Positions 3,825 through 62,923 of a stretch of 64,000 nucleotides of DNA are shown here, piece after piece. Origin of the DNA: Blastochloris viridis (GTDB lineage Bacteria > Pseudomonadota > Alphaproteobacteria > UBA2136 > UBA6156); contig VAFM01000002.1 in the NCBI GenBank assembly GCA_005768725.1, positions 276,486 through 340,485 on the forward strand, in the 5' to 3' direction. A program made the translations under genes and the position numbers. How positions within the stretch are numbered: position 1 is the first letter of the stretch; every line of letters starts with the position of its first letter. A model generated the notes under the pieces. It had not been told where the DNA came from. It was given only the letters and a program-made list of their open reading frames with translations, and searched no databases.

Positions 3825-3986
3825 GACATACTCTTTCGTTCGTTTCGCTAACTGCTTACCATCAAAACGCACGGGAAGCCAGCGTTGCCTCCCATTCCAA
3901 AAAGTTCCTGCGTTTGATAAATTCCGGCACGTAGTGCCGTTGCCCACACATACACGAGAATTAACGAAGCGCCGCAGGAGAATGCT

Positions 3987-4844
3987 TTAGCCCGCGCCGT
4001 TCAACACCTTACGCAGCAAAAGATTATTCGCCACATGCCCCGGCGCCGTCATGTGGAAGATCCCGCTCACCGGACGCCCCGCCATGTACAGGTCGCCCAC
4101 AACGTCCAACACCTTATGACGGACAGGTTCATCAGCAAACCGCAAGCCACCGGGGTTTTTTACGCTGCCGTCATCCCCGAATACGACCGCGTTCTCAAGG
4201 CTGCCGCCCTTGGCAAGGCCTGCCGCCTGCGCCGCCGCAATATCGCGCTCCAGCACAAAGGTGCGTGCCGGCGCAATCTCGCGTCGATAGGTCTCCTCGT
4301 CCACAACACCCTTCCATTCCTGACGCCCAATGGCCGGGTGCGGAAAGTCCACCACACACTCCACACGTAAGCCCTTGCGAGGCTCAGGGTTCGCCAGCAA
4401 GACGCGGCCTTCACTGTCTTCCACCTGCGGAGACGCGACATCCAGCCAGTTACGTTGAAGCTCAAGCTCCACACGCCCCACCGAGTCGATCAATTCCACC
4501 CACGGTAAGGCACTGCCGTCCAGAATCGGCACTTCCGGGCCGTTAATTTCAATAACAACGCTGTCCACACGCAGGCCATGCAGAGCACTTAACAAGTGCT
4601 CTACAGTGCTCACGTTCACGCCATGCTCATTTTCCAGCAATGTGCACAAAGGGCTACGCTTCACCATACTGGGGTGCAGATGAAACTCGCCATGACTCAC
4701 ATCGCCACGCCGCAGCATCACACCGGGCAAAGCCCCGATATGCGGACGCAAAACCACTTCGGCCCCGATCCCGCTGTGCAGACCAATCCCCCGGATGCTG
4801 ACCTCTTTGGCCAGCGTCACACTTTTGTGCATGTTCAATTCCAT
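3987..4844 (-). CDS. lpxC: UDP-3-O-acyl-N-acetylglucosamine deacetylase
   Basis: LpxC-like sequence and length (285 aa), downstream of ftsZ as in canonical dcw clusters; AGGAAAG RBS. Confidence 0.9.
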   Translation of the reverse strand: MELNMHKSVTLAKEVSIRGIGLHSGIGAEVVLRPHIGALPGVMLRRGDVSHGEFHLHPSMVKRSPLCTLLENEHGVNVSTVEHLLSALHGLRVDSVVIEINGPEVPILDGSALPWVELIDSVGRVELELQRNWLDVASPQVEDSEGRVLLANPEPRKGLRVECVVDFPHPAIGRQEWKGVVDEETYRREIAPARTFVLERDIAAAQAAGLAKGGSLENAVVFGDDGSVKNPGGLRFADEPVRHKVLDVVGDLYMAGRPVSGIFHMTAPGHVANNLLLRKVLNGAG

Positions 4845-25928: not shown

Positions 25929-25959
25929 AAAAAACGGCAGCCCAGTGGCTGCCGTTTTT
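25929..25959 (+). terminator. Rho-independent terminator (identical copy at 26628-26657)
   Basis: aaaaacggcagcc-cagt-ggctgccgttttt. Confidence 0.7.
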
Positions 25960-26627: not shown

Positions 26628-26657
26628 AAAAACGGCAGCCCAGTGGCTGCCGTTTTT
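26628..26657 (+). terminator. Rho-independent terminator (identical to 25929-25959)
   Basis: aaaaacggcagcc-cagt-ggctgccgttttt. Confidence 0.7.
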
Positions 26658-27399: not shown

Positions 27400-27924
27400 C
27401 TACATGCCGCGCGTACACAAAAATTCCTGAGTATGACACTCATTCAAATAAACACCGCCACTTCCCGGATATTTACAGAAATTCGACATTTCGTTTTCAC
27501 TCATACGGTCGGTACCATACCCAATATGTAACACTTTCGCGTCGCCGCAACGCGGTACGCCATTCTGGCATCCGGTTGCATCCCCCCACGGGTTGCGTAT
27601 GGTCCAGTCAGTCCCAACACGGGGTCCCGACTCCGGCGTCAGACACTGCCCACCACCCGTAATCACAAAGCCGCGCATACAGCCGTTACCATCTGCGCCA
27701 GCCTGTCCAGTCGCATAAAACGCCCCCTTACGCGCACAGGCATCCACCTGATTAAGCCGTATATGCGCCGATTTCGCATTATTGTTGGCTTGGTCGGCAA
27801 TATTCTGCAAAGCCGACCAACTGGCCTCCATGTTCAAACTTCCTCCCGCCGTCCGCTCTTGGGCATAGCTGCCGCACACCAGGCTTAAGGCAACGACAAC
27901 AACCGACCAGACACGTACGTTCAT
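27400..27924 (-). CDS. Secreted Cys-rich protein, paralog B of the QERTAGG family (9 Cys in C-terminal half)
   Basis: Signal peptide ..GSYA|QE; N-terminal 60 aa about 65% identical to paralog A, C-terminus unrelated. Confidence 0.6.
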   Translation of the reverse strand: MNVRVWSVVVVALSLVCGSYAQERTAGGSLNMEASWSALQNIADQANNNAKSAHIRLNQVDACARKGAFYATGQAGADGNGCMRGFVITGGGQCLTPESGPRVGTDWTIRNPWGDATGCQNGVPRCGDAKVLHIGYGTDRMSENEMSNFCKYPGSGGVYLNECHTQEFLCTRGM

Positions 27925-35461: not shown

Positions 35462-36457
35462 TTATCCAACCCGTTCCAGCGTCCGCAAAATCGCACTCCG
35501 CGCACGCGGGTTTACGTCAATCTCCGCATCACTCGGCACGATCTTCTTCCCCATCTTGAACTTGGCCGGGGTCTTGACGCGACCGATCTCATCCAGCTCA
35601 TCCAGACACAACCGGCGGAACGCCGCCTTCACCGCACGCTCTTCCAGCGGCTGGAACGAAATCACCGCCAGCACGCCACCCTTTTTCAAACACCACGCCG
35701 CATCCGGCAGCGCGCGCTCCAGCACGGCCAGTTCATCATTCACGGCCACACGCAGGGCCTGAAAAATACGCGCCGCCGGGTGGGCACGCTTCAGGCCTAA
35801 CTTAGGCGGATACACCTGCTCCACCGCCGCCAATAAATCTTTGGTGGTCTCAAACGGCTGAGCCTTGCGCTGCTTGACGATCAGACGCGCCAGCACACGG
35901 CTCTTCGGCTCTTCACCGTACACATAAAAGATATCGGCCAATTCTTCCTCGCGGGAGGTGTTCAGCACGTCCGCAGCGGTCTTTTTCATGCTGCTGTTGA
36001 GGCGCATATCCAGCGGCCCCTCAAAATGATAACTCAAGCCGCGCTGAGGGTCGTCCAGTTGGTCGCTACTGAACCCAAGGTCGAGCAGAATCCCATCGGC
36101 CAGCGGGGGTAACGCGCCCACTTTGCGCTTGCCGCAGGTCACGCTGTTTTGCAGTACCGGTCCGGCCAATACTTCGGGAATGGTATCGTAGGCGGCACGT
36201 ACCAGGTGCACACGGTCGCCAAAGGTTTCCACCAGCGGCGCACAGCGCACTAATGCACGGCTGTCCCAGTCCAGTCCCACCACTTCGGCCCCGCGCTCCA
36301 GCAGGCCACGGGTGTGCCCACCACCGCCCAAAGTACCATCCACCAGCAGTTTTCCGGCGGCAGGTTCAAGGGCATCCATCACTTCATGGAACAGCACAGG
36401 GACGTGCACCGTCTCGGCCGTACCGCGCGTTTCTAGCAAAGTGGAATCCCCATTCAT
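35462..36457 (-). CDS. rsmH: 16S rRNA (cytosine1402-N4)-methyltransferase RsmH (MraW)
   Basis: SAM-binding TLGGGGH motif, 331 aa, downstream of mraZ. Confidence 0.9.
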   Translation of the reverse strand: MNGDSTLLETRGTAETVHVPVLFHEVMDALEPAAGKLLVDGTLGGGGHTRGLLERGAEVVGLDWDSRALVRCAPLVETFGDRVHLVRAAYDTIPEVLAGPVLQNSVTCGKRKVGALPPLADGILLDLGFSSDQLDDPQRGLSYHFEGPLDMRLNSSMKKTAADVLNTSREEELADIFYVYGEEPKSRVLARLIVKQRKAQPFETTKDLLAAVEQVYPPKLGLKRAHPAARIFQALRVAVNDELAVLERALPDAAWCLKKGGVLAVISFQPLEERAVKAAFRRLCLDELDEIGRVKTPAKFKMGKKIVPSDAEIDVNPRARSAILRTLERVG

Positions 36458-36633: not shown

Positions 36634-37110
36634 TTATTTCCAGAGTCCGTCCATAACGGCGAAGTCTTCCGCCGTTAATTGGCCGTCATCCTGCATCTGG
36701 GCTTCATAACGCTGCGGGTTCCAGATGGTGAAATATTCCCCCTGACCGGCGAACATGATCTCTTCGCCAAGGCCGGCTTTTTCCGCCAGGTCCGCTGGCA
36801 GCATCACGCGGCCGGCATCATCGAAGTTTAGTGGCCGAGCAGCTGCAAGAATGGCCCGCGCCAGTCGTTGGCGTACCGGGCTGAGTGCCGGAAGTTGCTG
36901 AATTTTTTCAGCCAGTTTGAGAAAGTCATCGTAAGCCCAGCCATATAAGTATCCTCCATTGCTTCCTGCATCCGGCGCCGCGTACACCACAACTTGCTGT
37001 CGGGTATGCGCGGCCATTTCATGACGGAACGACGCCGGCACCGAAACACGGCCCTTCTTGTCCACGTTATTCACGTAAGAGGACAAGAAGACGGTCATCG
37101 GGGCAGTCAT
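36634..37110 (-). CDS. mraZ: Transcriptional regulator MraZ
   Basis: Two MraZ repeats (DKKGRVSVP.., DDAGRVMLP..); start at MTAPMTVF (alternative 37098); track ORF extends to 37254. Confidence 0.85.
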   Translation of the reverse strand: MTAPMTVFLSSYVNNVDKKGRVSVPASFRHEMAAHTRQQVVVYAAPDAGSNGGYLYGWAYDDFLKLAEKIQQLPALSPVRQRLARAILAAARPLNFDDAGRVMLPADLAEKAGLGEEIMFAGQGEYFTIWNPQRYEAQMQDDGQLTAEDFAVMDGLWK

Positions 37111-37298: not shown

Positions 37299-37465
37299 CA
37301 ACGCAAGAGGAAAAGTGACATACCCCGCAGTATTTCTCGCCTAAGGCTGTGGATAAGTCTGGGGACGGAATCCCAAACACCCCCTCAAACAGCGCGGCCA
37401 CACGCCAAAAGAAAAAGATCGGCCCATAAAATCCCATCGGAACAAACCTTGTTTTTCCCCTCCCC

Positions 37466-37494: not shown

Positions 37495-37498
37495 GCAC

Positions 37499-38020
37499 CT
37501 GCACGGGGTCACCGCGAGCCGCAAGGTTCGAGGAAAGTCCGGGCACCCACGGGCCACCGGCCGGAGAATATCCGGGCTGGCGACTCCCGCCAGACCAACA
37601 GGGCCACAGAAAAGAACCACCCCAGCAATGGGGAACGGGTGAAAAGGTAGGGTAAAAGCCTACCGCCGTTTCTAGCAATAGAGCGGGCGAGAGTAGGTTC
37701 CAGAATCGCTAGGCAGAGGTGATTTTTGAGATTTGCAAAGACTGAGCACCGTAAGTGTACACGCGAGTACACGCGGAGCGGAAGGCAAGCAAAGCTCAAA
37801 AAGCGCTCTGCATAGTAGATTCTGGAGCCTACTCGAAGGTAACCTGCCGGAGGGTGCAATGCTAAATAGGGACTCCCAGTGGCGCGGTCCGCGTCCGAAG
37901 CGCAAGCCGAGGAGGGTCCGGGTTGGCAGCTTGACGCCTGACGCAAGTCAGCGCGCAGATGAATGGTGACCGATCCCGCAAGGGAGAACAGAACCCGGCT
38001 TATACGTGCAGCAGGAGACT
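37499..38020 (+). ncRNA. rnpB: RNase P RNA (bacterial type A) with about 127-nt repeat-element insertion in helix P12
   Basis: P4 core AGGAAAGTCCGGGC (37531-37544), 3' core ACAGAACCCGGCTTATACG, P1/P2 complementarity (ggtcacc/ggtgacc); terminator hairpin follows. Confidence 0.78.
37699..37825 (+). repeat. Structured repeat element, copy 1 (diverged), inserted at the tip of rnpB P12
   Basis: ccagaatcgctaggcagag..gcaccgtaagtgtacacgcgagtacacgcggagcg..tagtagattctgg; homologous to copies at 38098 and 41420. Confidence 0.7.
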
Positions 38021-38047
38021 ATGGGGCCCTCGGGCCCCATCTTTGTT
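38021..38047 (+). terminator. Rho-independent terminator after rnpB
   Basis: atggggccc-tc-gggccccat then ctttgttt. Confidence 0.65.
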
Positions 38048-38097
38048 TAAGATATTAGAGGGGAATCCGTCCGCCATAAGGCGGGCGTTTGTTTAGA

Positions 38098-38236
38098 CTC
38101 CGGAACTCGCTGGCAGCGAGGGATTTTTGATTTTCTCCGCTGATGCTAGCACCGTAAGTGTACAAGGTCGGTACATGCGGAGCGCAGCATCAAGGAAAAA
38201 TCAAAAAGCACCGCTGTCCAGTAGAGTTCGGTTCCT
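38098..38236 (+). repeat. Structured repeat element, copy 2 (about 138 nt, long imperfect hairpin with terminal inverted repeats ccggaactc / gagttcgg)
   Basis: ccggaactcgctggcagcgagggatttttgattttctccgctgatgctagcaccgtaagtgtacaaggtcggtacatgcggagcgcagcatcaaggaaaaatcaaaaagcaccgctgtccagtagagttcgg. Confidence 0.7.
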
Positions 38237-38242
38237 TAGGAT

Positions 38243-38818
38243 TTATCGCAACCAGTCCCAACTGAAGTGCACGCCCGGATCCGTCTTCCGCCCCGGCGCC
38301 ACTTCATTATGCCCAAGCACACGCTCGGAGGTGATATGCGGATTCCGCGCTAGAATATCCGCCACCAGTTCTTTGAGCGCGAGATACTGCGCTTCGGTAT
38401 AAGGCTCGGCCCGCGTCCAGCCTACCAGAGTTTCTTGCTCCACACTGGGCGGCCCGTCCAAAAACGGCCCACAGTTGGCCACTTCAATCCCCAGGCTCCA
38501 GTTATTAAGCCCGTTAACCTCCGCACCATCGCTTTTCACGGCACGGCTCACACCGGCATGGAAGGCCACCAGACGCTCCGGCACGAGCTGAATGACCTCA
38601 CCCTCACGGGTAATATAATAATGACAACTCACCTCGGCCACAGGGTCGCACAGGCGCTGCAAGGCGCCGTCGTCCCCCGCCATCCACGTGCCATGTATGA
38701 TCACGAATTCCAGTCGCTCACCCGCGTTGCGCGTGCGGTAGTTAGGGCTGGGCAATACGCGGTCAACCAGAGCCGAGTCCGCCGTGAACACCGGCACAGC
38801 CGTCGCTACATCGGCCAC
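38243..38818 (-). CDS. ampD: N-acetylmuramoyl-L-alanine amidase, AmpD-like (Amidase_2 family)
   Basis: Zn-ligand and catalytic motifs (IIHGTW.., HNEVAPGRKTDPG), 191 aa. Confidence 0.8.
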   Translation of the reverse strand: MADVATAVPVFTADSALVDRVLPSPNYRTRNAGERLEFVIIHGTWMAGDDGALQRLCDPVAEVSCHYYITREGEVIQLVPERLVAFHAGVSRAVKSDGAEVNGLNNWSLGIEVANCGPFLDGPPSVEQETLVGWTRAEPYTEAQYLALKELVADILARNPHITSERVLGHNEVAPGRKTDPGVHFSWDWLR

Positions 38819-39819
38819 AGGCGGTTCACCACATCACGGATCTTCGGCAGAGGCCCCACCGGCTGACCGTTCAATGTCAGGGTCATCTGCATATTGCCCA
38901 TACGGATGGTCCCGACTGACGGCAGGTTGCGCATAAAGCGGTTCACACCATTAATCTCCGCATCATTCTGCGGCGCCAATACGCCGGAGGCCCGCACCCA
39001 ACGCGCCAGGTTCTGGCTCTTGTCGCTCGTAAAGGTCATTTCGCCCAGCATCTGGTAATCACGGGTCACGGTCGCGCGGCCGAACACCGCAGCAGTCGTG
39101 CTGGCACCCTGTATCGTGGTCTTGACCGAAAGACTGGCGATATCCACCACATCCCCGGGGCGTAACGCCATCACCGCCGCTTTCACAAGCGCTCCGGCTG
39201 TTGGCACCTGCCCCTGCCCGAACACATTCACCATCGCCGCAAACGACGCCGCGGGGATCTGCATCTTCCCGCTCACCACCGCCTCACCGCCTTGCCATTT
39301 CGGACGACTCGCAAGGTTGAGGTCAACCGCACCGCCATTAATGCCGCGCTCCAGCACCACATCGCCCAAGCTCACCAGTTCGTTGCCAGCCAAGTCAAGC
39401 ACGCGCACACTCTCGGCTTTCAGCGTCAGGCTGTTTTCCTTTTCAATCCACATCACACGCCCGTCCTGGGTTTCCAGTATCAGCTTACGCCCTTGTGCCA
39501 GCGTCACTTCCACGCGCTCGGGCAATTCGATAACCCAGCGGTCGCGGCGGAAGAAATCGCTGCTCAGACGCAGGCTGGGCGCCGAAATACTCTGCACAGG
39601 CCCGCTGCTGAACTCCACACGCGGTGCCGGCATATCCATCGTTACGTGCATCACGTCGGGCACCCACTGCGGTTGGCCGTAACTCACGCGGGCCTGCAGC
39701 CCCTGTTCCAGCGTACCCTTCATTTTAGCAGTGGTGTACTCAAGGCTCACCATCCAGAATACACCGTACCCCAGCACGGCCAGCAGGGCTGCCAGAAAAA
39801 GAGCTGCAATTGTCCGCAT
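38806..39819 (-). CDS. Membrane-anchored hypothetical protein (337 aa, N-terminal TM, periplasmic beta-rich body)
   Basis: Long ORF, 13-nt overlap with ampD start suggests co-transcription; no confident family assignment. Confidence 0.5.
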   Translation of the reverse strand: MRTIAALFLAALLAVLGYGVFWMVSLEYTTAKMKGTLEQGLQARVSYGQPQWVPDVMHVTMDMPAPRVEFSSGPVQSISAPSLRLSSDFFRRDRWVIELPERVEVTLAQGRKLILETQDGRVMWIEKENSLTLKAESVRVLDLAGNELVSLGDVVLERGINGGAVDLNLASRPKWQGGEAVVSGKMQIPAASFAAMVNVFGQGQVPTAGALVKAAVMALRPGDVVDIASLSVKTTIQGASTTAAVFGRATVTRDYQMLGEMTFTSDKSQNLARWVRASGVLAPQNDAEINGVNRFMRNLPSVGTIRMGNMQMTLTLNGQPVGPLPKIRDVVNRLWPM

Positions 39820-39846
39820 ATCGTTTCTCGTCCTCGTTTATCGTGG

Positions 39847-41307
39847 TTATTTGGCGTCGGGAGAAATCATCTGCTCCGGGCGGACCGCGGCATCAAACGT
39901 CTTGGCATCCAAAAAGCCCAGCTTCAACGCCGCCTCTTTCAGGCTCATGTTGTCATGCAAGGCTTTCTTGGCCACTTGGGCGGCCTTGTCGTAACCGATC
40001 ACATTGTTCAGCGCCGTCACCAGCATCAGGCTGTTGGCCAGGTGGCGCTCGATCTGTGGCTTGTTCGGCTCCAAGCCAACCAGACAGTTGTCGGTGAAGC
40101 TTTGCAGCGCGTCGGCCAGCAAAGTCACGCTTTGCAGAATATTATGAATGATGAGCGGCTTGAACACGTTGAGTTGCAGGTGTCCTTGCAAACCACCTAC
40201 AGTCACGGCGGCATCGTTCCCAATCACCTGGCAGCACACCATGCTCAATGCCTCGCATTGGGTCGGGTTGACCTTACCGGGCATGATGCTGCTACCCGGC
40301 TCATTGGCAGGCAGGTTCAGCTCGTTCAGGCCGCAACGCGGACCGCTACCCAGCAGACGCACGTCATTGGCAATCTTCATCGCCGCCACGGCGGTGGTCT
40401 TCAGGCTGGCGCTCAGTTGCACCAGCGGGTCATGCGCTGCCAAGCCAAAGAACTTGTTCTCCATCTCACGGAATTTGAGGCCCAGTTCCTTGGCGCAGTA
40501 CTTGGTCACAAGGCCCGGGAATTTCACGTGGGTGTTCAAGCCGGTACCGACAGCCGTCCCGCCAATCGGCAGCGCCAGTGCGCCATTCAGGGCATCTTTC
40601 ACCGCGGCTTCAGCAAACTCGATCTGCGCCGCAAAAGCCGAAAATTCCTGACCCAGCGTCAGCGGTGTCGCATCCTGCAGGTGGGTGCGACCGATCTTGA
40701 TGATCTTCTGCCACGCCTTGACCTTCTTGTTCAGTTCCTTCTTCACCGTCGCCAGCACCGGCAGCAGTTCCTGGGCCACGGCATCGCACGCAGCCAGATG
40801 CATGGCGGCCGGGAAGGTATCGTTGCTGCTCTGCCCCTTGTTGACATGGTCATTCGGGTGCACCGGAGACTTGCCGCCACGGTTCCCCGTCAGCATCTCA
40901 TTGGCACGACCGGCGATCACTTCGTTCAGGTTCATATTGGTCTGCGTGCCGCTGCCGGTCTGCCAGACCACCAGCGGGAAATTCCCGTCCAGCGTGCCGG
41001 AGATCACTTCATCTGCCGCCGCCGTAATGGCTTTCACCAGCTTGGCATCCAGACGCTTCAGGTCACCGTTGGCCAGCGCCGCACTCTTCTTCAGCACGGC
41101 ATAGGCTTTCACAAAACGCGGCGTGAAGCTGAAGCGCTGTTCACCGCCGATACGGAAATTCTCGCTGCTGCGCTGGGTCTGGGCGCCCCAGTAGCGCTCG
41201 GCAGGGACCGGTACGGCACCCATGCTGTCGGTTTCATCGCGGGTGGCAGCGGTCATGGCTTTCACGTTTTTGGCGGAAGCCGCGGGTTTCTTGAGGGCAG
41301 AGGCCAT
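39847..41307 (-). CDS. fumC: Fumarate hydratase class II
   Basis: [16 protein letters not shown] signature, 486 aa (possible start at internal Met 41256). Confidence 0.92.
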
Positions 41308-41419
41308 GGGGTAGTATCCTTCTTGTATGCCGCCACTCTAAGCGCAAAAAAAAAGCGGCACCAGAGGCACCGCGGAAAATTAACAAGAGACCGTGGGATA
41401 ATCGCACAAACAGGTTCGG

Positions 41420-41554
41420 CCCCGGAACTCGCTGAGCGCGAGGGATTTTTTGTTTTCTCCGCAGAGACGAGCACCGCAAGTGTACGAGGTTGTACATGCG
41501 GAGCGCAGGAACAAGGAAAAACAAAAAAGCACCGCGCTCAGTAGAGTTCGGTGC
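41420..41554 (+). repeat. Structured repeat element, copy 3, between fumC and flgE
   Basis: ccggaactcgctgagcgcgagggattttttgttttctccgcagagacgagcaccgcaagtgtacgaggttgtacatgcggagcgcaggaacaaggaaaaacaaaaaagcaccgcgctcagtagagttcgg. Confidence 0.7.
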
Positions 41555-41571: not shown

Positions 41572-43254
41572 CTAGCGAAGTTGCAACAACTCGTTGAGCA
41601 TCTGGTCTACCGTGGTGATCACCTTGCTGCTCGCCTGGAACGCACGCTGGGCCACGATCATGTTGGAGAACTCACCGGCGATGTCGGTGGTCGAACCTTC
41701 CAGACTCCCGCTCACGATACGACCGGTACCACCGACACCCGCCTGCTTCAGCAGTGCCTGGCCGCTGGCGTCGGTCGATTGCAGCAGGCTGCCCGACACC
41801 ACTTCCAGACCCGCCGGGTTCTGGAACGCAGCCAGCGCGACCTTGAACAGCTTCTTCACTTCACCGTTGGTAAAGGTACCGCTCACAAAACCCTCTTCGT
41901 CAACCGAGATGGAAGCCAGCGAACCTGCACCGAAACCGTCCTGGTTCACACCGCCGGTGTTGTAGGCGGAGGCCAGCTGGGTCATACCGTCGGTACCGAT
42001 ACCATCCTGCAGCTTATTGCGGGTGGCGACCGTAAAGGTCTGGATCGGACCGTTGGCAGCACCTTCGTTAAAGGCGTCGCTGACCGTCACACGTACCGCA
42101 GCCGTCAGTGTCGGCGGGTTGGCAGGGAAGAACAGTTCACGCGTACCGTTTGCAGCAATTTGTGCAGCCGGGATCGTACCGATAACCGTCGTCCCGTCGG
42201 TATCCAGAAGTTCGACGTTACCACCGTTCATATTGAGGGTGTAAGTACCGCCCGAAGTCAGCGTACCGGTTTCCACAGCAACACCCAGAATACCTGTCGT
42301 GCTGGCGTTGGCAGTTGTCGCGGTGGTGGTTTGACCGCCGGTGAACTGGCCGAAGTTCATGGTAATGGCACTCGCGGCTACACCGTTGGCCCACTGGATG
42401 TTGGTGGCCGTACCGGTCGCATATTTCAGGGTACCGCCATTGGTGTTGAATTCCAGAACACCGCCACCGACTTTCACGCGGGAGCCGTCGGCGCTGGTGG
42501 CCTGACCGGTACCCGGCTGAATGTCAGCCGAGTCGGCAACCAGTTGCCAGTCCCAGGTGTTGGCACTGCGCTTGGTAAAGTGAATGGTCATGTCGCGGGC
42601 CCCACCCTGAGCGTCATACACACGGACGTCGGCCACATAGTCGGCAAGGGTCGGGTCATCCAGCGTATCTTGCAGGACCTGCGCAAGGGTATCCGTACCG
42701 AGCGTGCCGTAAATAGAGTTCACGGTTTCGGTGTTGTTCAGGTTCGCCTTGATGGAGAAATTCTCGGTCTGCTTGGCGGATACACCCACACTCTGCAGTT
42801 CGATCGCCTGCGGCTCCTGAATATTGACGATGGTACCATCGCTTTCGGTGCGCCAGCCCTGCAGGTAAAAACCATCCGGGTTGACCAGGTAACCTTCCTT
42901 GTTTTCGCTGAAGCTACCGGCACGGGTATAGTAGGTCGTGCTCTGGGTGCTGTTCACCTTGTTGTCGGAGACAACGAAGAAACCGGTACCGGAAATCGCA
43001 AGGTCGGTCTTGCTGGTGCTGGTAATAAAGCTACCCTGGCTGCTCTGGCCACGCAGAACCGAGGTCCCGACACCACCCGAGTTATACTGGGTACCGGAGG
43101 CACCGCTGCTGGTCACCATTTGGGAGAACAGCGTACGGCTGGCCTTATAACCAATGGTATTGGTGTTGGCGAGGTTGTCAGAGATCACGCTGATGGCTTG
43201 GCCTTGTGCGCCGATCCCGGCGACACTGGCGGTCATTGCTCCAAACAGACTCAT
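41572..43254 (-). CDS. flgE: Flagellar hook protein FlgE
   Basis: N-terminal MSLFGAMTASVAGIGAQGQAISVISDNLANTNTIGYK and C-terminal DIAGEFSNMIVAQRAFQASSKVITTVDQMLNELLQLR rod/hook signatures. Confidence 0.9.
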   Translation of the reverse strand: MSLFGAMTASVAGIGAQGQAISVISDNLANTNTIGYKASRTLFSQMVTSSGASGTQYNSGGVGTSVLRGQSSQGSFITSTSKTDLAISGTGFFVVSDNKVNSTQSTTYYTRAGSFSENKEGYLVNPDGFYLQGWRTESDGTIVNIQEPQAIELQSVGVSAKQTENFSIKANLNNTETVNSIYGTLGTDTLAQVLQDTLDDPTLADYVADVRVYDAQGGARDMTIHFTKRSANTWDWQLVADSADIQPGTGQATSADGSRVKVGGGVLEFNTNGGTLKYATGTATNIQWANGVAASAITMNFGQFTGGQTTTATTANASTTGILGVAVETGTLTSGGTYTLNMNGGNVELLDTDGTTVIGTIPAAQIAANGTRELFFPANPPTLTAAVRVTVSDAFNEGAANGPIQTFTVATRNKLQDGIGTDGMTQLASAYNTGGVNQDGFGAGSLASISVDEEGFVSGTFTNGEVKKLFKVALAAFQNPAGLEVVSGSLLQSTDASGQALLKQAGVGGTGRIVSGSLEGSTTDIAGEFSNMIVAQRAFQASSKVITTVDQMLNELLQLR

Positions 43255-43316
43255 GATGGTATCCTTTCGGTTGGGTAATTAGTTGGGTTGATAAAGAATT
43301 ATTGTTGTATCTCGGG

Positions 43317-43991
43317 TTACAGTGCCGTCACCGCGAGCACATCCTTGACGCCGACGGTACGCCCGTCTGTCATCACCAGGCTGGCATTGCCGTCTTCGGT
43401 AATCACGCTGGAAACGACACCGTAGGTCATCACGGTATTCGGAATGACAGCGCCCTTGGCATCAATGGCACGTACACTCACGCTATAGGTACCTTCAGCC
43501 ACTTTTTCGCCGGCATCATTCTTGCCGTCCCAGCTCACAATGTGGTTCCCCGTGGTGCCGTCGCCGGTCTGGGTTTTCACAACCTTGCCGTCTGCGTCAC
43601 GGATGGTGATTTCAACGCTGCTGGCGGTCTTATCCAGCTTGTAAGCAAATTCGCTGCCGCCTTCCTTGCCCACGGCCATAATGCTCCCCGGTGCAAGGGC
43701 GACTTTACCGATGTAGCTCACCGCGAGGCTGGTCTGGCCATAATCACGCTGCTCCAGCAGTTGGGAGAGGTAGTTGTTGCTGTTGATCTGCTGTTCAAGC
43801 GCACTAAACTGCGCGATCTGACCGGTAAATTCGGTACCTTCCAGCGGGTTCAGCGGGTCCTGGTTCTTCAACTGGGCCACCAGAAGTTTGAGGAAGGTGT
43901 TGAAGTCAACGGTGTTCAGACCGCCGCCGGCAGCGGACGTCAGCGCACCCGCGGCATTCCCCGCGTTATTGGTACCTGCAACTGTAGCCAT
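43317..43991 (-). CDS. flgD: Flagellar hook assembly (capping) protein FlgD
   Basis: FLKLLVAQLKNQDPLNP motif; start at internal MATVAGT Met with AGGATAACG RBS. Confidence 0.85.
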   Translation of the reverse strand: MATVAGTNNAGNAAGALTSAAGGGLNTVDFNTFLKLLVAQLKNQDPLNPLEGTEFTGQIAQFSALEQQINSNNYLSQLLEQRDYGQTSLAVSYIGKVALAPGSIMAVGKEGGSEFAYKLDKTASSVEITIRDADGKVVKTQTGDGTTGNHIVSWDGKNDAGEKVAEGTYSVSVRAIDAKGAVIPNTVMTYGVVSSVITEDGNASLVMTDGRTVGVKDVLAVTAL

Positions 43992-44008
43992 AATCGTTAT
44001 CCTAACCG

Positions 44009-45697
44009 TTATACATTTACATCCAGCATGCGGTCCGGGCTGACCCATTCCGCAAGATTGCTCACAAGGGGAGACGCCTCACCGGCAACGTCACCCGTCA
44101 CACCGCTCATACCGGTGCCGCTGGTGCGACGTCCGTTCGGCGTGGTCTGGGCTTGGGCATTCTGGCTTTGCTGGCCAAATTGTCCGCTACCGCTGTCGTT
44201 GCTCAACATCAGGTTGATCCCTTGTTCGCTTACCTTCAAACCGGCATCCGCCAGTCCTTGTCTCAAGGTATGCAACTCGCGTGCCAATTGCTCCACAACC
44301 CGCGGTTCACTTGCCGCAATCGCGCCATGAACCTTGCCTTCGGCAATGGTCAGCTCCACGGTCACCTTGCCCAGTTCCACCGGGTTCAGGTGCATGCGCA
44401 CGGTGCCACCGCCCTGCTCCAGCAGCGGCTGAATCTGCATATTCACCTGACGGCCGACCTGAGCCTTGTCCAGCAAGCCCTGAATCGCTTCATACTGTTC
44501 GGCATAACCGGTACCGCTCGCGGCCGCCTGCGCGGGGAGAGACGGATTGGCCAAAGCCTCGGCACGCTGCTGCTGCATCCATTGACCATGGGTGGTCGAA
44601 GGCGTCGCATCCGCACCTTTCACCGGGAGATCCGCCGTCGCATCGGCCTGCTCACGGCCGGTCGGCAACGGCTTCACCGCCTGCACGGTTTCGGTGCCGT
44701 TCGCATCGGCAGCCAGCGTGTAATAGGTCTCGCCTTCCGGCATCGTCACAATCTCATCGCGTGTCACAGGCTGAACCGTCACCGGCGCACGCGCCGCAAG
44801 CGTTACCTGCTTGGCGTCCACAGCAACATTCGCCACCGGTGCATCAGCCGCAGCCAACGCCGCAGTGTCCACGGGCTGCGCCTCCGGCAAAATCATCCCG
44901 ACATGCGCCGCATCTCCGTCCTGCACAACATCTACCTGAAACACCCGCAGCGCCGGCGCTTTTACCGCCACCTCACGGGTCACATCACCGTCACGCAAAC
45001 TCGCCAGCAGGTCACTGCCGGAAGGCAGTTTCGCCAGCGGCAGACTGCTCACGGTCAAGGTCTGTTCGGTGGTGGAAATCTGCAAACTGAAACTTTGGTT
45101 CTCTCCCTCGCCCACCGGCTGCGCGGCCTGACCCATCACGGTCAGCATCATCGCTGCCAGCGTGCCCGCCGTCTCGGCATCCAGTTCTTTCTCCTTGCCA
45201 TGATACTGCTCAACCAGTTTCATCATGGTCTCGATCCGGGCGGCAACCCCTTGGGCGGTCTCGGCGTCCATCCCCAGCTCCTGCAGGGCGCCCGCCAGCG
45301 CAGCCGTATCACCGGCCCCGCTCAGATCTAATCCACCTTCCAGAATGATCTTTTGATAAACCTCTTTCACCTGCGCCATGAACGCTTTCACGGTTTCGGC
45401 ATCACCCTTTACGGTCACGGCAGGTGCATCTTCATCCAGCTGTACCGTCTGTTCCACCACACCTTGGGTGGCAAAAAACGCCGATACATCAAATCCCATA
45501 TCCGCGACCACATCCGACCCCTCACCGCCGAACTTCACTGCCATCATACCGGCACCCATGGCCGGAGCCGCCGCACCGCCCATCAACGCCCCGAACAGAC
45601 CACCTAGGCCTGTTAAGTCCGGCGTACCGGCACCACCGGTCAACACAGAACCGGCTCCGAAAGAGACACCAGGGGCAATGACAGGTGAAGAAGACAT
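44009..45697 (-). CDS. fliK: Flagellar hook-length control protein FliK
   Basis: Low-complexity Ala/Gly/Thr-rich N-terminal part plus C-terminal Flg_hook domain (LNPVELGKVTVELTIAEGKVHGAIAASEP). Confidence 0.75.
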   Translation of the reverse strand: MSSSPVIAPGVSFGAGSVLTGGAGTPDLTGLGGLFGALMGGAAAPAMGAGMMAVKFGGEGSDVVADMGFDVSAFFATQGVVEQTVQLDEDAPAVTVKGDAETVKAFMAQVKEVYQKIILEGGLDLSGAGDTAALAGALQELGMDAETAQGVAARIETMMKLVEQYHGKEKELDAETAGTLAAMMLTVMGQAAQPVGEGENQSFSLQISTTEQTLTVSSLPLAKLPSGSDLLASLRDGDVTREVAVKAPALRVFQVDVVQDGDAAHVGMILPEAQPVDTAALAAADAPVANVAVDAKQVTLAARAPVTVQPVTRDEIVTMPEGETYYTLAADANGTETVQAVKPLPTGREQADATADLPVKGADATPSTTHGQWMQQQRAEALANPSLPAQAAASGTGYAEQYEAIQGLLDKAQVGRQVNMQIQPLLEQGGGTVRMHLNPVELGKVTVELTIAEGKVHGAIAASEPRVVEQLARELHTLRQGLADAGLKVSEQGINLMLSNDSGSGQFGQQSQNAQAQTTPNGRRTSGTGMSGVTGDVAGEASPLVSNLAEWVSPDRMLDVNV

Positions 45698-47490: not shown

Positions 47491-47693
47491 GGCGCAAGGC
47501 ATGCGCAAAACGCATAGCTCTCCCGGCGCCAACCGCGCATGAAATACCCATGCGCGGAAGCCCCTGCGCACGGAGCTAGAAACCTTTATTCTGGGGTGAT
47601 GAGGCAAACCGACGTGTACAGATACGTACACGAGGATTGACGAAGCGCCACAGAGAAAGGTTTTAGCCCGCGCCTTTCAACACCGCCTACGCC

Positions 47694-61031: not shown

Positions 61032-62753
61032 TTAGTTACCGCTGTTGAGAGAGTCAGTGTAACTCTTGATGGTATCTTCCAGCGTCTTCAGCTTGGCAAG
61101 CGCCACTTCCATGGCGGTATATTTGGCTTCCAGAGAAACGCGGTACACGGCCAGACGCGCATCAATCACATCCACACGGTCTTTAAAGTCGGTATTCTGA
61201 AGCTGCAGATCACTGATCTGGGTCGCGATCGTCCCGGTGGAAGCACGACTGATTTCATCGAAGTACCCGTAAAAACGGTCGGCCAATCCGCTGGACATGG
61301 TCACACTCAAACCACTCACAGTCCCGAGGTTCGGGCCACCATTAAAGAAGATCTTGGTACCGTCCTCCGCCGTCAGGGTCTTGCCGCTGACGGTCATGGC
61401 GACACCATTCCAGGTTGCACCGGTCACATTGCCGCTGGCGTCGGTGCCGGTGATCACAAGGGCGTTGGTGCCGTTGCTGTCACTGCCGCGGTTCAGCACG
61501 GTGATACGGCTGTCGCTGACCGAACTCTTGAACGTGAACAGATCCTTGATGCCTTCCACATTGGTCAGCAGTTTGGAGTCCAGAATCGTTTCATCGATAG
61601 ACAGCGTGTAGTCGGACTTCATCACGATACCGATCTGACTCAGGCTGGAGTACCCGTCCGGCGCACCTTCCACGGTCGCGGCCGCCATTTCACCAAGCTG
61701 GGAAACGATGTCACGCAGAATCTGGTCATAGGCCAGCGCACCGTATTCATTGTCACCTACGGTACCGTCGTCGTTACGGTCGGCGGCAGTGCGTTGCTCG
61801 GTCATGTAGGCACGCACTTCGTTGTAGGCGGTCACAAGGTTCCCGATAACAGTTTTGATGGACGAAAGATCCGGCTCAACCTTCAGGTTGATGGTGGTAC
61901 CCGGTTCGGCCTTCAGCAGGCTCAGGGTCACACCGGGGATCACATCGTTAATCTCATTGCTACTGCGCACGATGCCCGAGATCCCGTCGACCGAGATTTC
62001 AGCGTTGGAAGCCTCCACCAGTTCGTTCTTGATGTCGGCGCCACCGTTGGCGGTCAAACCCAGTTGGTCGGTCAGCGCACCACCCGCGCTGAAGTCCAGC
62101 GCATTGGCGGTCCCGGTCTTGGAGCTGGTCAGCACCAGATAGTGTGTATTGGCATCGGCCGAAACGATGCTGGCGGTCACGCCCGCACCGGCGTTATTGA
62201 TCTTCGAACGCAGGTCCAGCAGCGTGTCGGTCGACGAGATCGTGATGGTCTTGCCACCTACCGTAAAATCACCGGGGGTCACACCGAGAGTCGAAAGCGC
62301 GGTGTTGGTGCTGGTATAGGCATCACTGCGGATCTGTTGCGCCGCGGCCAGTTTCTCAATTTTGATGGTATGCGACATGTTCTGCGCGGTGCTATCCACG
62401 GTCGCAATCAGCAGGCTGTCGATGTCGGAGGGCGTGCCACTGACGGCGGACACCGTACCGCTGATCTTCTTGCTGTCAAAGACGTTGGCACTGTTACCGG
62501 GGTTACCACGCAGCGCGTTCAGCGCAGTGGTCACGTTGGCCACTTTGGTATTGAATTCGGTTAATGCCGAAATTTTGGTAGTGTTGGTGGTAATCTTGGT
62601 TTCAATGTTCACGGCAGGCTGGCGGCGGGCTTGCATAAGGCCGTTAATAATCGCCTCCGTATCCAAACCGGAGGTAATACCGCCCACCTTAAGCTTACCG
62701 TTGGCATCAACGGTGAAATTGGTGGTATTTAAAACTGAGGTCGTTGTTGCCAT
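61032..62753 (-). CDS. fliD: Flagellar filament cap protein FliD (HAP2)
   Basis: N-terminal GITSGLDTEAIINGLMQARRQP and C-terminal FliD coiled-coil regions, 573 aa. Confidence 0.85.
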   Translation of the reverse strand: MATTTSVLNTTNFTVDANGKLKVGGITSGLDTEAIINGLMQARRQPAVNIETKITTNTTKISALTEFNTKVANVTTALNALRGNPGNSANVFDSKKISGTVSAVSGTPSDIDSLLIATVDSTAQNMSHTIKIEKLAAAQQIRSDAYTSTNTALSTLGVTPGDFTVGGKTITISSTDTLLDLRSKINNAGAGVTASIVSADANTHYLVLTSSKTGTANALDFSAGGALTDQLGLTANGGADIKNELVEASNAEISVDGISGIVRSSNEINDVIPGVTLSLLKAEPGTTINLKVEPDLSSIKTVIGNLVTAYNEVRAYMTEQRTAADRNDDGTVGDNEYGALAYDQILRDIVSQLGEMAAATVEGAPDGYSSLSQIGIVMKSDYTLSIDETILDSKLLTNVEGIKDLFTFKSSVSDSRITVLNRGSDSNGTNALVITGTDASGNVTGATWNGVAMTVSGKTLTAEDGTKIFFNGGPNLGTVSGLSVTMSSGLADRFYGYFDEISRASTGTIATQISDLQLQNTDFKDRVDVIDARLAVYRVSLEAKYTAMEVALAKLKTLEDTIKSYTDSLNSGN

Positions 62754-62923
62754 CGTTATCTCCAGTTTCCTACTTGGTTATCCCGCACGTTCCGAGGCAC
62801 GTAAACGCGGGGGTCGGGAGCATCCTGCCCCCAAGGTTACCTGACGCTCGCAGGCGTACCTCTGGTTTATGGTCTGCGGCACCATCTTTTCCTGACGCTG
62901 CGAACACTGCATTCTGTACCATG

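Follow-up and report, generated by a model that had tools for sequence, protein, structure and literature searches.

A low-copy family of covarying hairpin repeats with a single replication-strand orientation in uncultured Alphaproteobacteria, with one copy inside the RNase P RNA gene

Bacterial genomes commonly contain small palindromic repeats, and the movement and role of most of them are still open questions. The described systems closest to the one treated here are the repetitive extragenic palindromic (REP) sequences, the hairpin elements of the IS200/IS605 type, the Rickettsia palindromic elements (RPEs) and the ERIC-type repeats. Here we describe imperfect palindromes of about 135 bp that form a low-copy family, previously undescribed and occurring in a small clade of uncultured Alphaproteobacteria, and of which three full copies lie in a 64-kb stretch of DNA from Blastochloris viridis (GenBank assembly GCA_005768725.1, contig VAFM01000002.1, positions 276,486 to 340,485). 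This whole stretch is called the window, and the loci compared with it carry L numbers. In kind the family is broadly familiar, being REP-like or like a miniature inverted-repeat transposable element (MITE); its interest, which is moderate, lies in the clean covariation of its stems, its strict replication-strand orientation and the stable incorporation of one copy into RNase P RNA. By analogy it would work like the REP/REPIN and IS200/IS605-type hairpin elements, and in appearance it seems close to RPE or ERIC-type repeats. The features that define canonical REPs, CIR repeats, attC sites and all Rfam families are absent from it, the comparison with RPEs being one of descriptions only. Because its covariation is clean and includes bulges and mismatches, because its orientation follows one rule and because one orthologue evolves as slowly as codon first positions, the family makes the open questions about such repeats testable.

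REP sequences are defined by GT[AG]G lying 0-2 nt 5' of a short GC-rich hairpin with a stem of 7-20 bp and a loop of 2-5 nt (PMC6006769), and the enzyme of the system is encoded by a single-copy gene elsewhere in the genome and requires single-stranded DNA (PMC6006769, PMC3116915). The present family resembles them as a set of extragenic hairpin palindromes with a conserved GTAG and vertical persistence, and REP doublets (REPINs) also form long hairpins (PMC6006769, PMC3116915). In this family, however, the GTAG lies inside the 3' arm of a 47-bp stem, the small hairpin that precedes some copies has no GTAG before it, the unit is not two short REPs, and there are few copies per genome as against tens to hundreds. 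No gene for a RAYT (Y1 HUH) protein was found in the approximately 280 kb of the window and related loci. The IS200/IS605 elements and their short derivatives (PATEs) share with the family a strict replication orientation bias and the use of hairpins that are not sequence-identical inverted repeats, and they lack target-site duplications (PMC3971601, PMC6006769). They carry two short and similar subterminal hairpins and insert 3' of a fixed tetra- or pentanucleotide, whereas a unit of the family consists of a single hairpin of 135 nt, in some copies accompanied by a small hairpin unlike it, and no tetranucleotide is conserved in its flanks. Its better-folding strand is the lagging-strand sequence, and no TnpA was found in the window and flanking loci.

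As far as they are described in PMC2229807, the RPEs are likewise alphaproteobacterial palindromic repeats, of 105-146 bp, that form one long stem-loop, lie between genes and have no associated transposase. The same account, citing Ogata et al. 2002, mentions RPEs fused into functional genes, including those for tmRNA and M1 (RNase P RNA), a direct precedent for the copy in rnpB described below. Unlike RPEs, the family is carried not by Rickettsia but by flagellated lineages of free-living type with about 59% GC, represented by metagenome-assembled genomes (MAGs), and was not seen as in-frame insertions in protein genes. The ERIC, Correia (NEMIS) and RUP MITEs are also intergenic, are 100-200 bp long with terminal inverted repeats, vary in presence between strains and give stem-loops in transcripts when they lie within operons (PMC2229807). 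The ends of the family pair as in a MITE, for example CCGGAATTCGCTG with CAGTAGAATTCGG, as part of a continuous hairpin of 47 pairs. Target duplications, of TA or other sequence, accompany these MITEs, and for some of them a parent insertion sequence can be identified; a search for one with the family's termini found none in the window and none in the flanks of 15 loci. In the family it is the apex, not the termini, that is best conserved, and the stems covary extensively between copies. To our knowledge no replication-strand orientation rule has been described for RPEs, nor any orientation rule for ERIC, Correia or RUP elements.

CIR repeats are alphaproteobacterial and intergenic too, about 110 bp long and conserved between species, with two stem-loops and a linker (PMC2229807), but they are defined by a conserved GANTC methylation site exposed in the terminal loop. 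The apical loop of the family is variable and has no GANTC, a motif that occurs only in the basal stems of the copies in the RI_491 genome and in rnpB. Integron attC sites have RYYYAAC ... GTTRRRY ends and a variable centre, whereas by inspection the family has ends CCGGAATTC...GAATTCGG and a centre that is its most conserved part; no integrase was found near the copies among the open reading frames of the window. The hairpin core, GCACCGYAAGTGTAC-N-GTACAYGCGGAGCG, was searched for as an exact pattern in 185,579 species genomes, which captures one of two apex forms (type 1) and so undercounts the other (type 2) and more diverged copies; no Rickettsia, Caulobacter or Brucella genome was matched.

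Three full copies were found in the window, all on the + strand, with nhmmer (--max, with a hidden Markov model of the three copies) and with a covariance model built from 26 copies. They are the following, together with the small hairpin that belongs to copy 2:

37691-37834, + strand: copy 1, the whole inserted hairpin of 144 nt (rnpB alignment; independent fold of the insert)
37697-37827, + strand: copy 1, the family-homologous part (covariance model, 114 bits)
38066-38094, + strand: small GC-rich hairpin CGTCCGCC-ATAA-GGCGGGCG followed by TTTGTTT, 5' module of copy 2 (same module upstream of about 12 of 26 copies)
38098-38233, + strand: copy 2, long hairpin (covariance model, 133.9 bits; folds; Pfam on neighbouring genes)
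41420-41553, + strand: copy 3, long hairpin (covariance model, 144.1 bits)

The first-pass annotation of this DNA had placed three repeats at 37699-37825, 38098-38236 and 41420-41554, and both models recover them. It had described terminal inverted repeats (CCGGAACTC/GAGTTCGG, or CCAGAATC/GATTCTGG in rnpB), a GATTTTTGATTTT arm and a core of GCACCGYAAGTGTAC-N6/7-GTACAYGCGGAGCG, all of which are present as quoted, and the paired stem differences that it drew attention to (CTGGCAGCG/CGCTGTCCAG against CTGAGCGCG/CGCGCTCAG) were read correctly. Three features go beyond that description, namely the position of the insertion in rnpB at the junction of P14 and P11, the small GC-rich hairpin upstream and the strict replication-strand orientation. 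Each copy is predicted to fold as a single long imperfect hairpin, with RNA energies of -56.5, -64.5 and -59.4 kcal/mol for copies 1, 2 and 3 and z-scores against dinucleotide shuffles of -7.9, -7.0 and -5.9. With DNA parameters the z-scores of the three copies lie between -7.8 and -10.2, and none of 200 shuffles folded equally well.

Covariation was assessed in an alignment of 26 copies from about eight uncultured alphaproteobacterial genomes, in which the consensus hairpin has 47 pairs. Standard pairs occupy 91.7% of the cells, against 79.3 ± 0.6 after shuffling and 38-52% when the partners are slid by 1-3 columns; both sides have changed in 32 of the 47 pairs (16.1 in shuffles), and the covariation score is 0.331 against 0.119 in shuffled alignments. 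On all of these measures, none of 500 shuffles matched the observed value. The suggestion, made from three copies, that paired changes reflect selection on a folded RNA or a DNA hairpin is thus upheld by strong covariation over 26. Between the covarying stems lie near-invariant blocks, GATTTTTG/CAAAAAGC, the apex GAGCACCGYAAGTGTAC...GTACATGCGGAGCGCA, CAAG and CAGTAGAAT; the last of these contains the GTAG, sits within the 3' arm of the long stem and is kept in 24 of the 26 copies. The apical loop itself is variable, and the apex is conserved more than the termini. Several asymmetries of the hairpin are conserved as well: in CAG-U-A-GAA an A next to a G.U pair is bulged, there is an AA bulge as well as an A.A mismatch, and the apical stem is closed by a G.U pair; conserved G.U pairs stand at columns 13/129 and 63/81. 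Such asymmetries would disappear if one arm were simply copied onto the other.

In the type 2 apex, GAGCAGCGCA-GCGTAC...GTACGTGAGCAGCGCA, compensatory changes have preserved the G.U pair, the bulge and the mismatch; this form was found in the rnpB copy of L023, in an intergenic copy of L021 and in L003b. All three copies of the window have the type 1 apex, only type 2 was seen in the sister genomes L021 and L023, and RI_491 has both; the existence of two discrete forms suggests gene conversion among copies or co-evolution with a trans-acting partner. About 12 of the 26 copies have a small GC-rich hairpin 10-12 nt upstream, with a stem of 8-9 bp, a GNRA-like or three-base loop and a GGCG end that is often followed by TTTGTTTCGGC, and three loci of RI_491 have another small hairpin, GGGGGAGGG-TTT-CCCTCCCCC. 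As these types are shared among copies, the unit that is repeated includes the small hairpin in two subfamilies at least.

The copies also follow a single rule of orientation, which was examined by taking the strand that carries the window's + form (the forward strand) and computing the GC skew of the whole locus. The skew of the forward strand is negative in all 23 loci (mean -0.18, extremes -0.09 and -0.33), and its AT skew is mostly positive. The 23 loci amount to about 18 independent contigs from at least eight genomes (two-sided sign test, approximately 1e-5), and copies on any one contig are always co-oriented. Within the window the third-position GC skew, referred to the + strand, has the same sign for + and - genes (-0.26 and -0.16), so that the skew marks replication strands and not transcription. 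The leading strand usually has more G than C, and by this rule the C-rich forward form is the lagging-strand sequence. Orientation with respect to adjacent genes is mixed: copies are sense in L007, L008 and L012, antisense in L011 and in copy 3, and lie between convergent genes in L001 and L002. The forward strand forms the more stable hairpin in 26 of 26 copies with DNA parameters (mean difference 5.5 kcal/mol) and in 25 of 26 with RNA parameters (mean 6.8). Deamination of cytosines in the leading strand should instead place G.T pairs on the opposite strand, so that this asymmetry looks selected. An attempt to choose the strand by counting G.U against A.C cells was dropped, as it rests on three conserved wobble columns without which the counts are about equal (30 and 23), and the energy asymmetry is the better measure. 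Replication-linked orientation bias is documented for IS200/IS605, where it is attributed to transposition that uses the single strand exposed as lagging-strand template at the fork, and also for IS91 and IS110 (PMC3971601, PMC6006769); with these parallels, the orientation rule favours a DNA-hairpin mechanism over a purely RNA one. The first-pass annotation had offered a REP/MITE-like element or a small-RNA gene family, a pair of readings within which the orientation rule speaks for the former.

Copy 1 differs from the others in lying inside a gene. The same annotation had the copies adjoining the rnpB, ampD and flgE units, which holds for copies 2 and 3, whereas copy 1 is within rnpB itself (RF00010 match 37496-38018). 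The gene, its 3' hairpin and its counterparts in relatives are as follows:

37496-38018, + strand: rnpB, bacterial type A RNase P RNA, 523 nt (RF00010, 166.6 bits, E 5.9e-52)
38021-38047, + strand: terminator-like hairpin at the 3' end of rnpB, kept in relatives
L023: rnpB of 518 nt, insert present with type 2 apex
L019: rnpB of 437 nt, only the basal ~25 bp of the insert, with a short closing loop
L021, L024, L025, L026, L027, L028 and L036: rnpB of 359-407 nt, no insert

The match spans the full model (1-367) and exceeds the gathering score of 100, relatives scoring 175-232 bits, and the conserved blocks GAGGAAAGTCCGGGC, ACAGAAAAG, AGATGAATGG and ACAGAACCCGGCTTA are intact. At one point the window's gene has 168 nt where the RF00010 model has 21. 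An alignment of nine rnpB genes from the window and relatives places the insert after the 3' strand of P14 (...GCGGGC, ending at 37688) and before GAAGGTAACC, the 3' strand of P11; a location within P12 was rejected, as P12, P13 and P14 are all intact in this alignment. The insert folds on its own into the 144-nt hairpin. A survey of RNase P RNA expansions lists bacterial P5.1, P10.1 and P18.0, with P14 as an older addition, and nothing at the P14/P11 junction (PMC12974513). With its conserved regions intact and its score above threshold, the ribozyme presumably works although its specificity domain contains a five-way junction, and RNase P would then tolerate the extra helix.

The inserts of the window, L023 and L019 have in common an additional basal stem, found in no intergenic copy, that covaries between them (GAGTAGG/CCTACTC in the window, GAATGTGC/GCACATTC and GAGTGTG/CACACTT). 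This common stem, with other shared derived states, indicates a single insertion, and independent insertions in the three lineages were rejected on the same grounds. In neighbour-joining trees of mraZ and of the rnpB core, the six closest genomes form one clade in which three rnpB genes with the insert and three without are interspersed; in the concatenated and mraZ trees L021 is the partner of L023, and L027 that of L019. Such a pattern implies at least three losses or exchange of rnpB alleles. A helix that three lineages have maintained by compensatory changes, and that others have lost or shortened, offers a natural experiment on the gain of expansion segments and on the tolerance of RNase P for extra RNA. 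The intervening sequences of 23S rRNA are comparable as stem-loops of about 100-400 nt set into a helix or at a junction in an essential structural RNA, patchily distributed among relatives and deemed selfish (PMC4990558), but their excision by RNase III leaves a fragmented rRNA and they do not usually belong to a dispersed intergenic repeat family. The long double-stranded stem of the rnpB insert would, from its predicted fold, be a plausible RNase III substrate.

The family is real yet rare, with few copies per genome, and this count is an undercount for the reason given with the core search. The exact type 1 core occurs at 15 loci in only five MAGs among the species genomes (UBA6156, RI_491, C4_MAG_00017, HK-STAS-PROT-82 and one bin labelled Pseudomonas) and at six loci in JGI metagenomes. 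Further loci were collected through homologues of MraZ, and the covariance model finds 27 forward copies in the approximately 280 kb of collected loci. The first-pass annotation had named two outcomes that would count against a new family, and neither was found: with at least 27 copies in several related genomes the family extends well beyond the window, and no named element was matched in Rfam 15, PLSDB plasmids or IMG/VR. The core pattern matched nothing in IMG/VR and blastn found no match in PLSDB; an origin from phages or plasmids was rejected on these grounds. When the window was searched with the 4227 families of Rfam, RF00010 was the sole match above its gathering threshold, and at E values up to 10 copies 2 and 3 gave only chance-level matches such as Esr41 (23.6 vs 102 bits) and mir-2778 (19.8 vs 86 bits).

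Comparison of loci reveals gain and loss of copies, recent duplicates and decay. Copy 2 and its small 5' hairpin are missing at the equivalent site in L019, L021, L023 and L027, and two short-read contigs of the window's own organism break off within copy 2, as they do at repeats. Copy 3 has an orthologue in L013 (C4_MAG_00017), at an equal distance from the flgE stop codon and with identical variable stems, while in L021, L023 and L027 the site is empty and holds only the flgE terminator. In RI_491, L006 and L010 do not differ until the hairpin ends and are divergent beyond it, and L011 and L008, from one MAG, differ at few positions. Co-oriented neighbouring copies lie 0.3-4 kb apart in the window, L002, L003 and L029. 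The L021 copy and a fragment in the window (3948-4008) have lost their folding (z about 0). These observations agree with an element that spreads by copying to new sites and at times decays.

Copy 3, by contrast with its surroundings, has changed little. It is 90.2% identical to its orthologue in L013 over 133 nt (13 positions differ), whereas the flanking genes of the two loci are 78-83% identical overall and 53-64% identical at codon third positions, and the 18 nt that separate copy 3 from the flgE stop codon are 47% identical; codon first positions, at 87-92%, come near to the value of copy 3. No pair of the 47 has changed on both sides. Copy 3 therefore evolves more slowly than neutral drift and more slowly than correction between arms would allow, and is constrained in place. 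Likeness between copies can also be greater across distant genomes, at unrelated sites, than within a single genome: copy 2 and L002a are 89% identical, while within the window copies 2 and 3 are 82% and copies 1 and 2 about 65% identical.

We judge it about 55% probable that the family is a new REP/MITE-like, non-autonomous hairpin element whose copying or transposition uses a hairpin of single-stranded DNA at the replication fork and an enzyme encoded elsewhere. Its working form would be a hairpin in one strand of mobile or duplicating DNA, made or used in single-stranded DNA at the fork as in IS200/IS605 and REP/RAYT; the fork is suggested by the uniform replication-strand orientation of copies whose orientation to neighbouring genes is mixed. 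The enzyme would act in trans from elsewhere in the genome and might be of the HUH type. Copies landing in transcribed DNA would give that RNA a very stable stem-loop, and one old copy would have become a lasting extra helix of RNase P RNA, arising from the junction of P11, P12, P13 and P14.

Several points weigh against such an element. Neither a transposase, an HUH protein nor an integrase was found with Pfam among the 38 open reading frames of the window that were scanned, and no protein recurs beside the copies: an all-against-all comparison of the open reading frames around 15 loci, made in search of an associated protein, returned only translations of the repeat and one syntenic pair. 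No target-site duplication or conserved target could be defined, filled and empty sites being too diverged to set the ends; in six of about 15 copies TTCGG is seen immediately beyond the 5' end and again inside the 3' end, but it is missing from the empty sites. The GTAG is not placed 0-2 nt 5' of a short hairpin as in canonical REPs but inside the long stem. The stabler hairpin forms on the lagging-strand sequence, whereas IS608-type elements act on the lagging-strand template, so that the polarity matches these elements in kind but not obviously in sign. Conservation that is higher at the apex than at the termini is unusual for inverted repeats bound by a transposase. Finally, the conservation of copy 3 next to synonymous sites that are about 40% diverged implies constraint at the level of the host, which a purely selfish resident would lack.

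A more novel reading, which we hold to be rather unlikely, is that the family is no selfish mobile DNA but a hairpin maintained by the host under purifying selection and in strict replication orientation, either as a new sort of single-stranded DNA signal at the fork with a dedicated enzyme or as a new class of structured RNA with a specific partner; lineage-specific switches between type 1 and type 2 apices would track that partner. If so, its capture by rnpB would be a living example of an essential ribozyme gaining a helix from a dispersed hairpin element.

Taken as an RNA, the family would be a multicopy small RNA or cis-acting module, bound by a protein or processed by an RNase and spread by duplication. 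Strong covariation with conserved G.U pairs, bulges and an A.A mismatch is what such a molecule would show, and the forward strand is the better RNA fold in 25 of 26 copies. Copies lie in the leader of a gene taken to be rpsD (L007) and in the 3' regions of genes, the rnpB copy of the window, certain to be transcribed in the forward direction, still has the conserved apex, and the orthologous copy is 90% identical where third positions are at 53-64%. We nevertheless consider a functional RNA unlikely, since it leaves the single replication-strand orientation in 23 of 23 loci without explanation and has to accommodate a mixed orientation to flanking genes, with copy 3 antisense to both flgE and the lyase gene beyond it. 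No sigma-70-like promoter was found upstream of the elements and no terminator downstream, terminator-like hairpins being confined to the small hairpin that precedes the element or to local palindromes that some copies have by chance in the 5' arm; once the three wobble columns are set aside, G.U cells hardly outnumber A.C cells (30 and 23), and Rfam has no match.

The orientation rule is, on the other hand, readily explained if the copies are not mobile but are orientation-dependent DNA sites with a function for the host in replication, repair or chromosome handling, such as priming or restart hairpins or fork signals. Low copy number, co-oriented pairs and trios within 0.3-4 kb (window, L002, L003 and L029), purifying selection on one orthologous copy and a selected strand asymmetry of hairpin stability, opposite to that expected from deamination bias, would all agree with this. 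Yet presence varies among close relatives at three sites, there are insertions in rnpB and in the rpsD leader as well as decayed copies and fragments, and the identical paralogues in one genome resemble recent copying; with no known system that uses a 135-nt hairpin in such a way, we regard host sites of this kind as distinctly unlikely. A family dispersed from rnpB itself, by copying of a P14-like GNRA hairpin and the extra helix out of the RNase P RNA gene, is very improbable: P14 (loop GCAA, 3' strand ...GCGGGCG) is followed after 9 nt by the long hairpin, much as in the intergenic composites of a small hairpin (loop GCAA, GCGA or ATAA, ending ...GGCG), 10-12 nt and the long hairpin, but the likeness to P14 is limited to a generic GC stem and GNRA loop, the GGGGGAGGG-TTT-CCCTCCCCC hairpin of RI_491 is unlike P14, that genome is rich in intergenic copies and has an rnpB without the helix (L025), and the extra basal stem of the rnpB copies occurs in no intergenic copy.

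The window as a whole is an ordinary alphaproteobacterial chromosome, with the dcw cluster, lpxC, kdsD-lptCAB and flagellar and chemotaxis genes. The genes around the three copies, as identified with Pfam, are the following:

35462-36457, - strand: rsmH
36634-37098, - strand: mraZ
stop codon at 38243, - strand: Amidase_2/AmpD-like gene
between the amidase and lyase genes, - strand: DUF2125-like gene
39847-41307, - strand: gene for a lyase of the fumarase/aspartase family
stop codon at 41572, - strand: flgE
beyond flgE, - strand: flgD

Copy 2 has the rnpB terminator on one side and the 3' end of the convergent amidase gene on the other, and copy 3 lies 18 nt past the flgE stop codon, on the strand opposite to flgE, before the flgE terminator and the lyase gene. 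In UBA6156, the L007 copy (2786-2920) lies in the sense direction between a TTGACA-type promoter and the start codon of a gene that, from its N-terminal sequence, we take to be rpsD, and it replaces most of the leader seen in the related contig L029 (7400-7600). Elsewhere in L029 (3652-4188), two co-oriented copies 270 nt apart flank three DnaA boxes, with fragments of the 5' end of the element just upstream; this cluster was considered as a possible oriC and rejected, as the GC skew keeps its sign there. A perfect DnaA box, TGTGGATAA, is also present at 37348 between mraZ and rnpB, and an exact box (TTATCCACA or its complement) occurs once in each mraZ locus from L016 to L028, counted by locus and not by position; DnaA may control the promoter of the dcw cluster.

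Some further repeats of the window lie outside the family. An inverted repeat with arms at 911-1042 and 27735-27866 (132 nt each, 70% complementary, 26.7 kb apart) was considered as a source of extra copies and is unrelated to the hairpins; its first arm lies within an open reading frame with a weak match to a phage tail-fibre Gp53-like C-terminal domain (808-1392). Two identical 30-nt palindromes, AAAAACGGCAGCCCAGTGGCTGCCGTTTTT, at 25930-25959 and 26628-26657, 698 nt apart, resemble bidirectional terminators and bracket a segment just upstream of a gene for a 3'-5' exonuclease (RNase D-like).

The GC skew of the window, -0.148 on the + strand, and those of all related loci (L001-L034), 0.09-0.33 in absolute value, are stronger by far than we would expect for Alphaproteobacteria. 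At third codon positions the sign of the skew does not depend on the strand of the gene, and so strong a skew may be characteristic of this uncultured lineage. Three genes stand apart, flgE (41575-43278), flgD (43320-44078) and the gene at 61035-62777, with third-position GC skews of +0.16 to +0.21 where nearly all others are at about -0.2, which could reflect a past inversion, transfer or unusual codon use.

Two shorter sequences in the window resemble the hairpins:

47570-47670, + strand: tentative short relative, a hairpin of about 100 nt (covariance model, 19.3 bits, E 0.07; fold z -6.9)
3948-4008, + strand: fragment, 84% identical to 47624-47684 (no fold of its own, z 0.0)

The covariance model matches the first weakly, at 47574-47668. 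Its apex is CGTGTAC-AGATAC-GTACACG, and its ends, TTCTGG.../...CACAGAGAA, resemble those of the hairpin family. The fragment repeats the right half of this hairpin together with 25 nt of its flank. The hairpin at 47570-47670 may represent a distant subfamily, in which case the copy numbers given above are underestimates.

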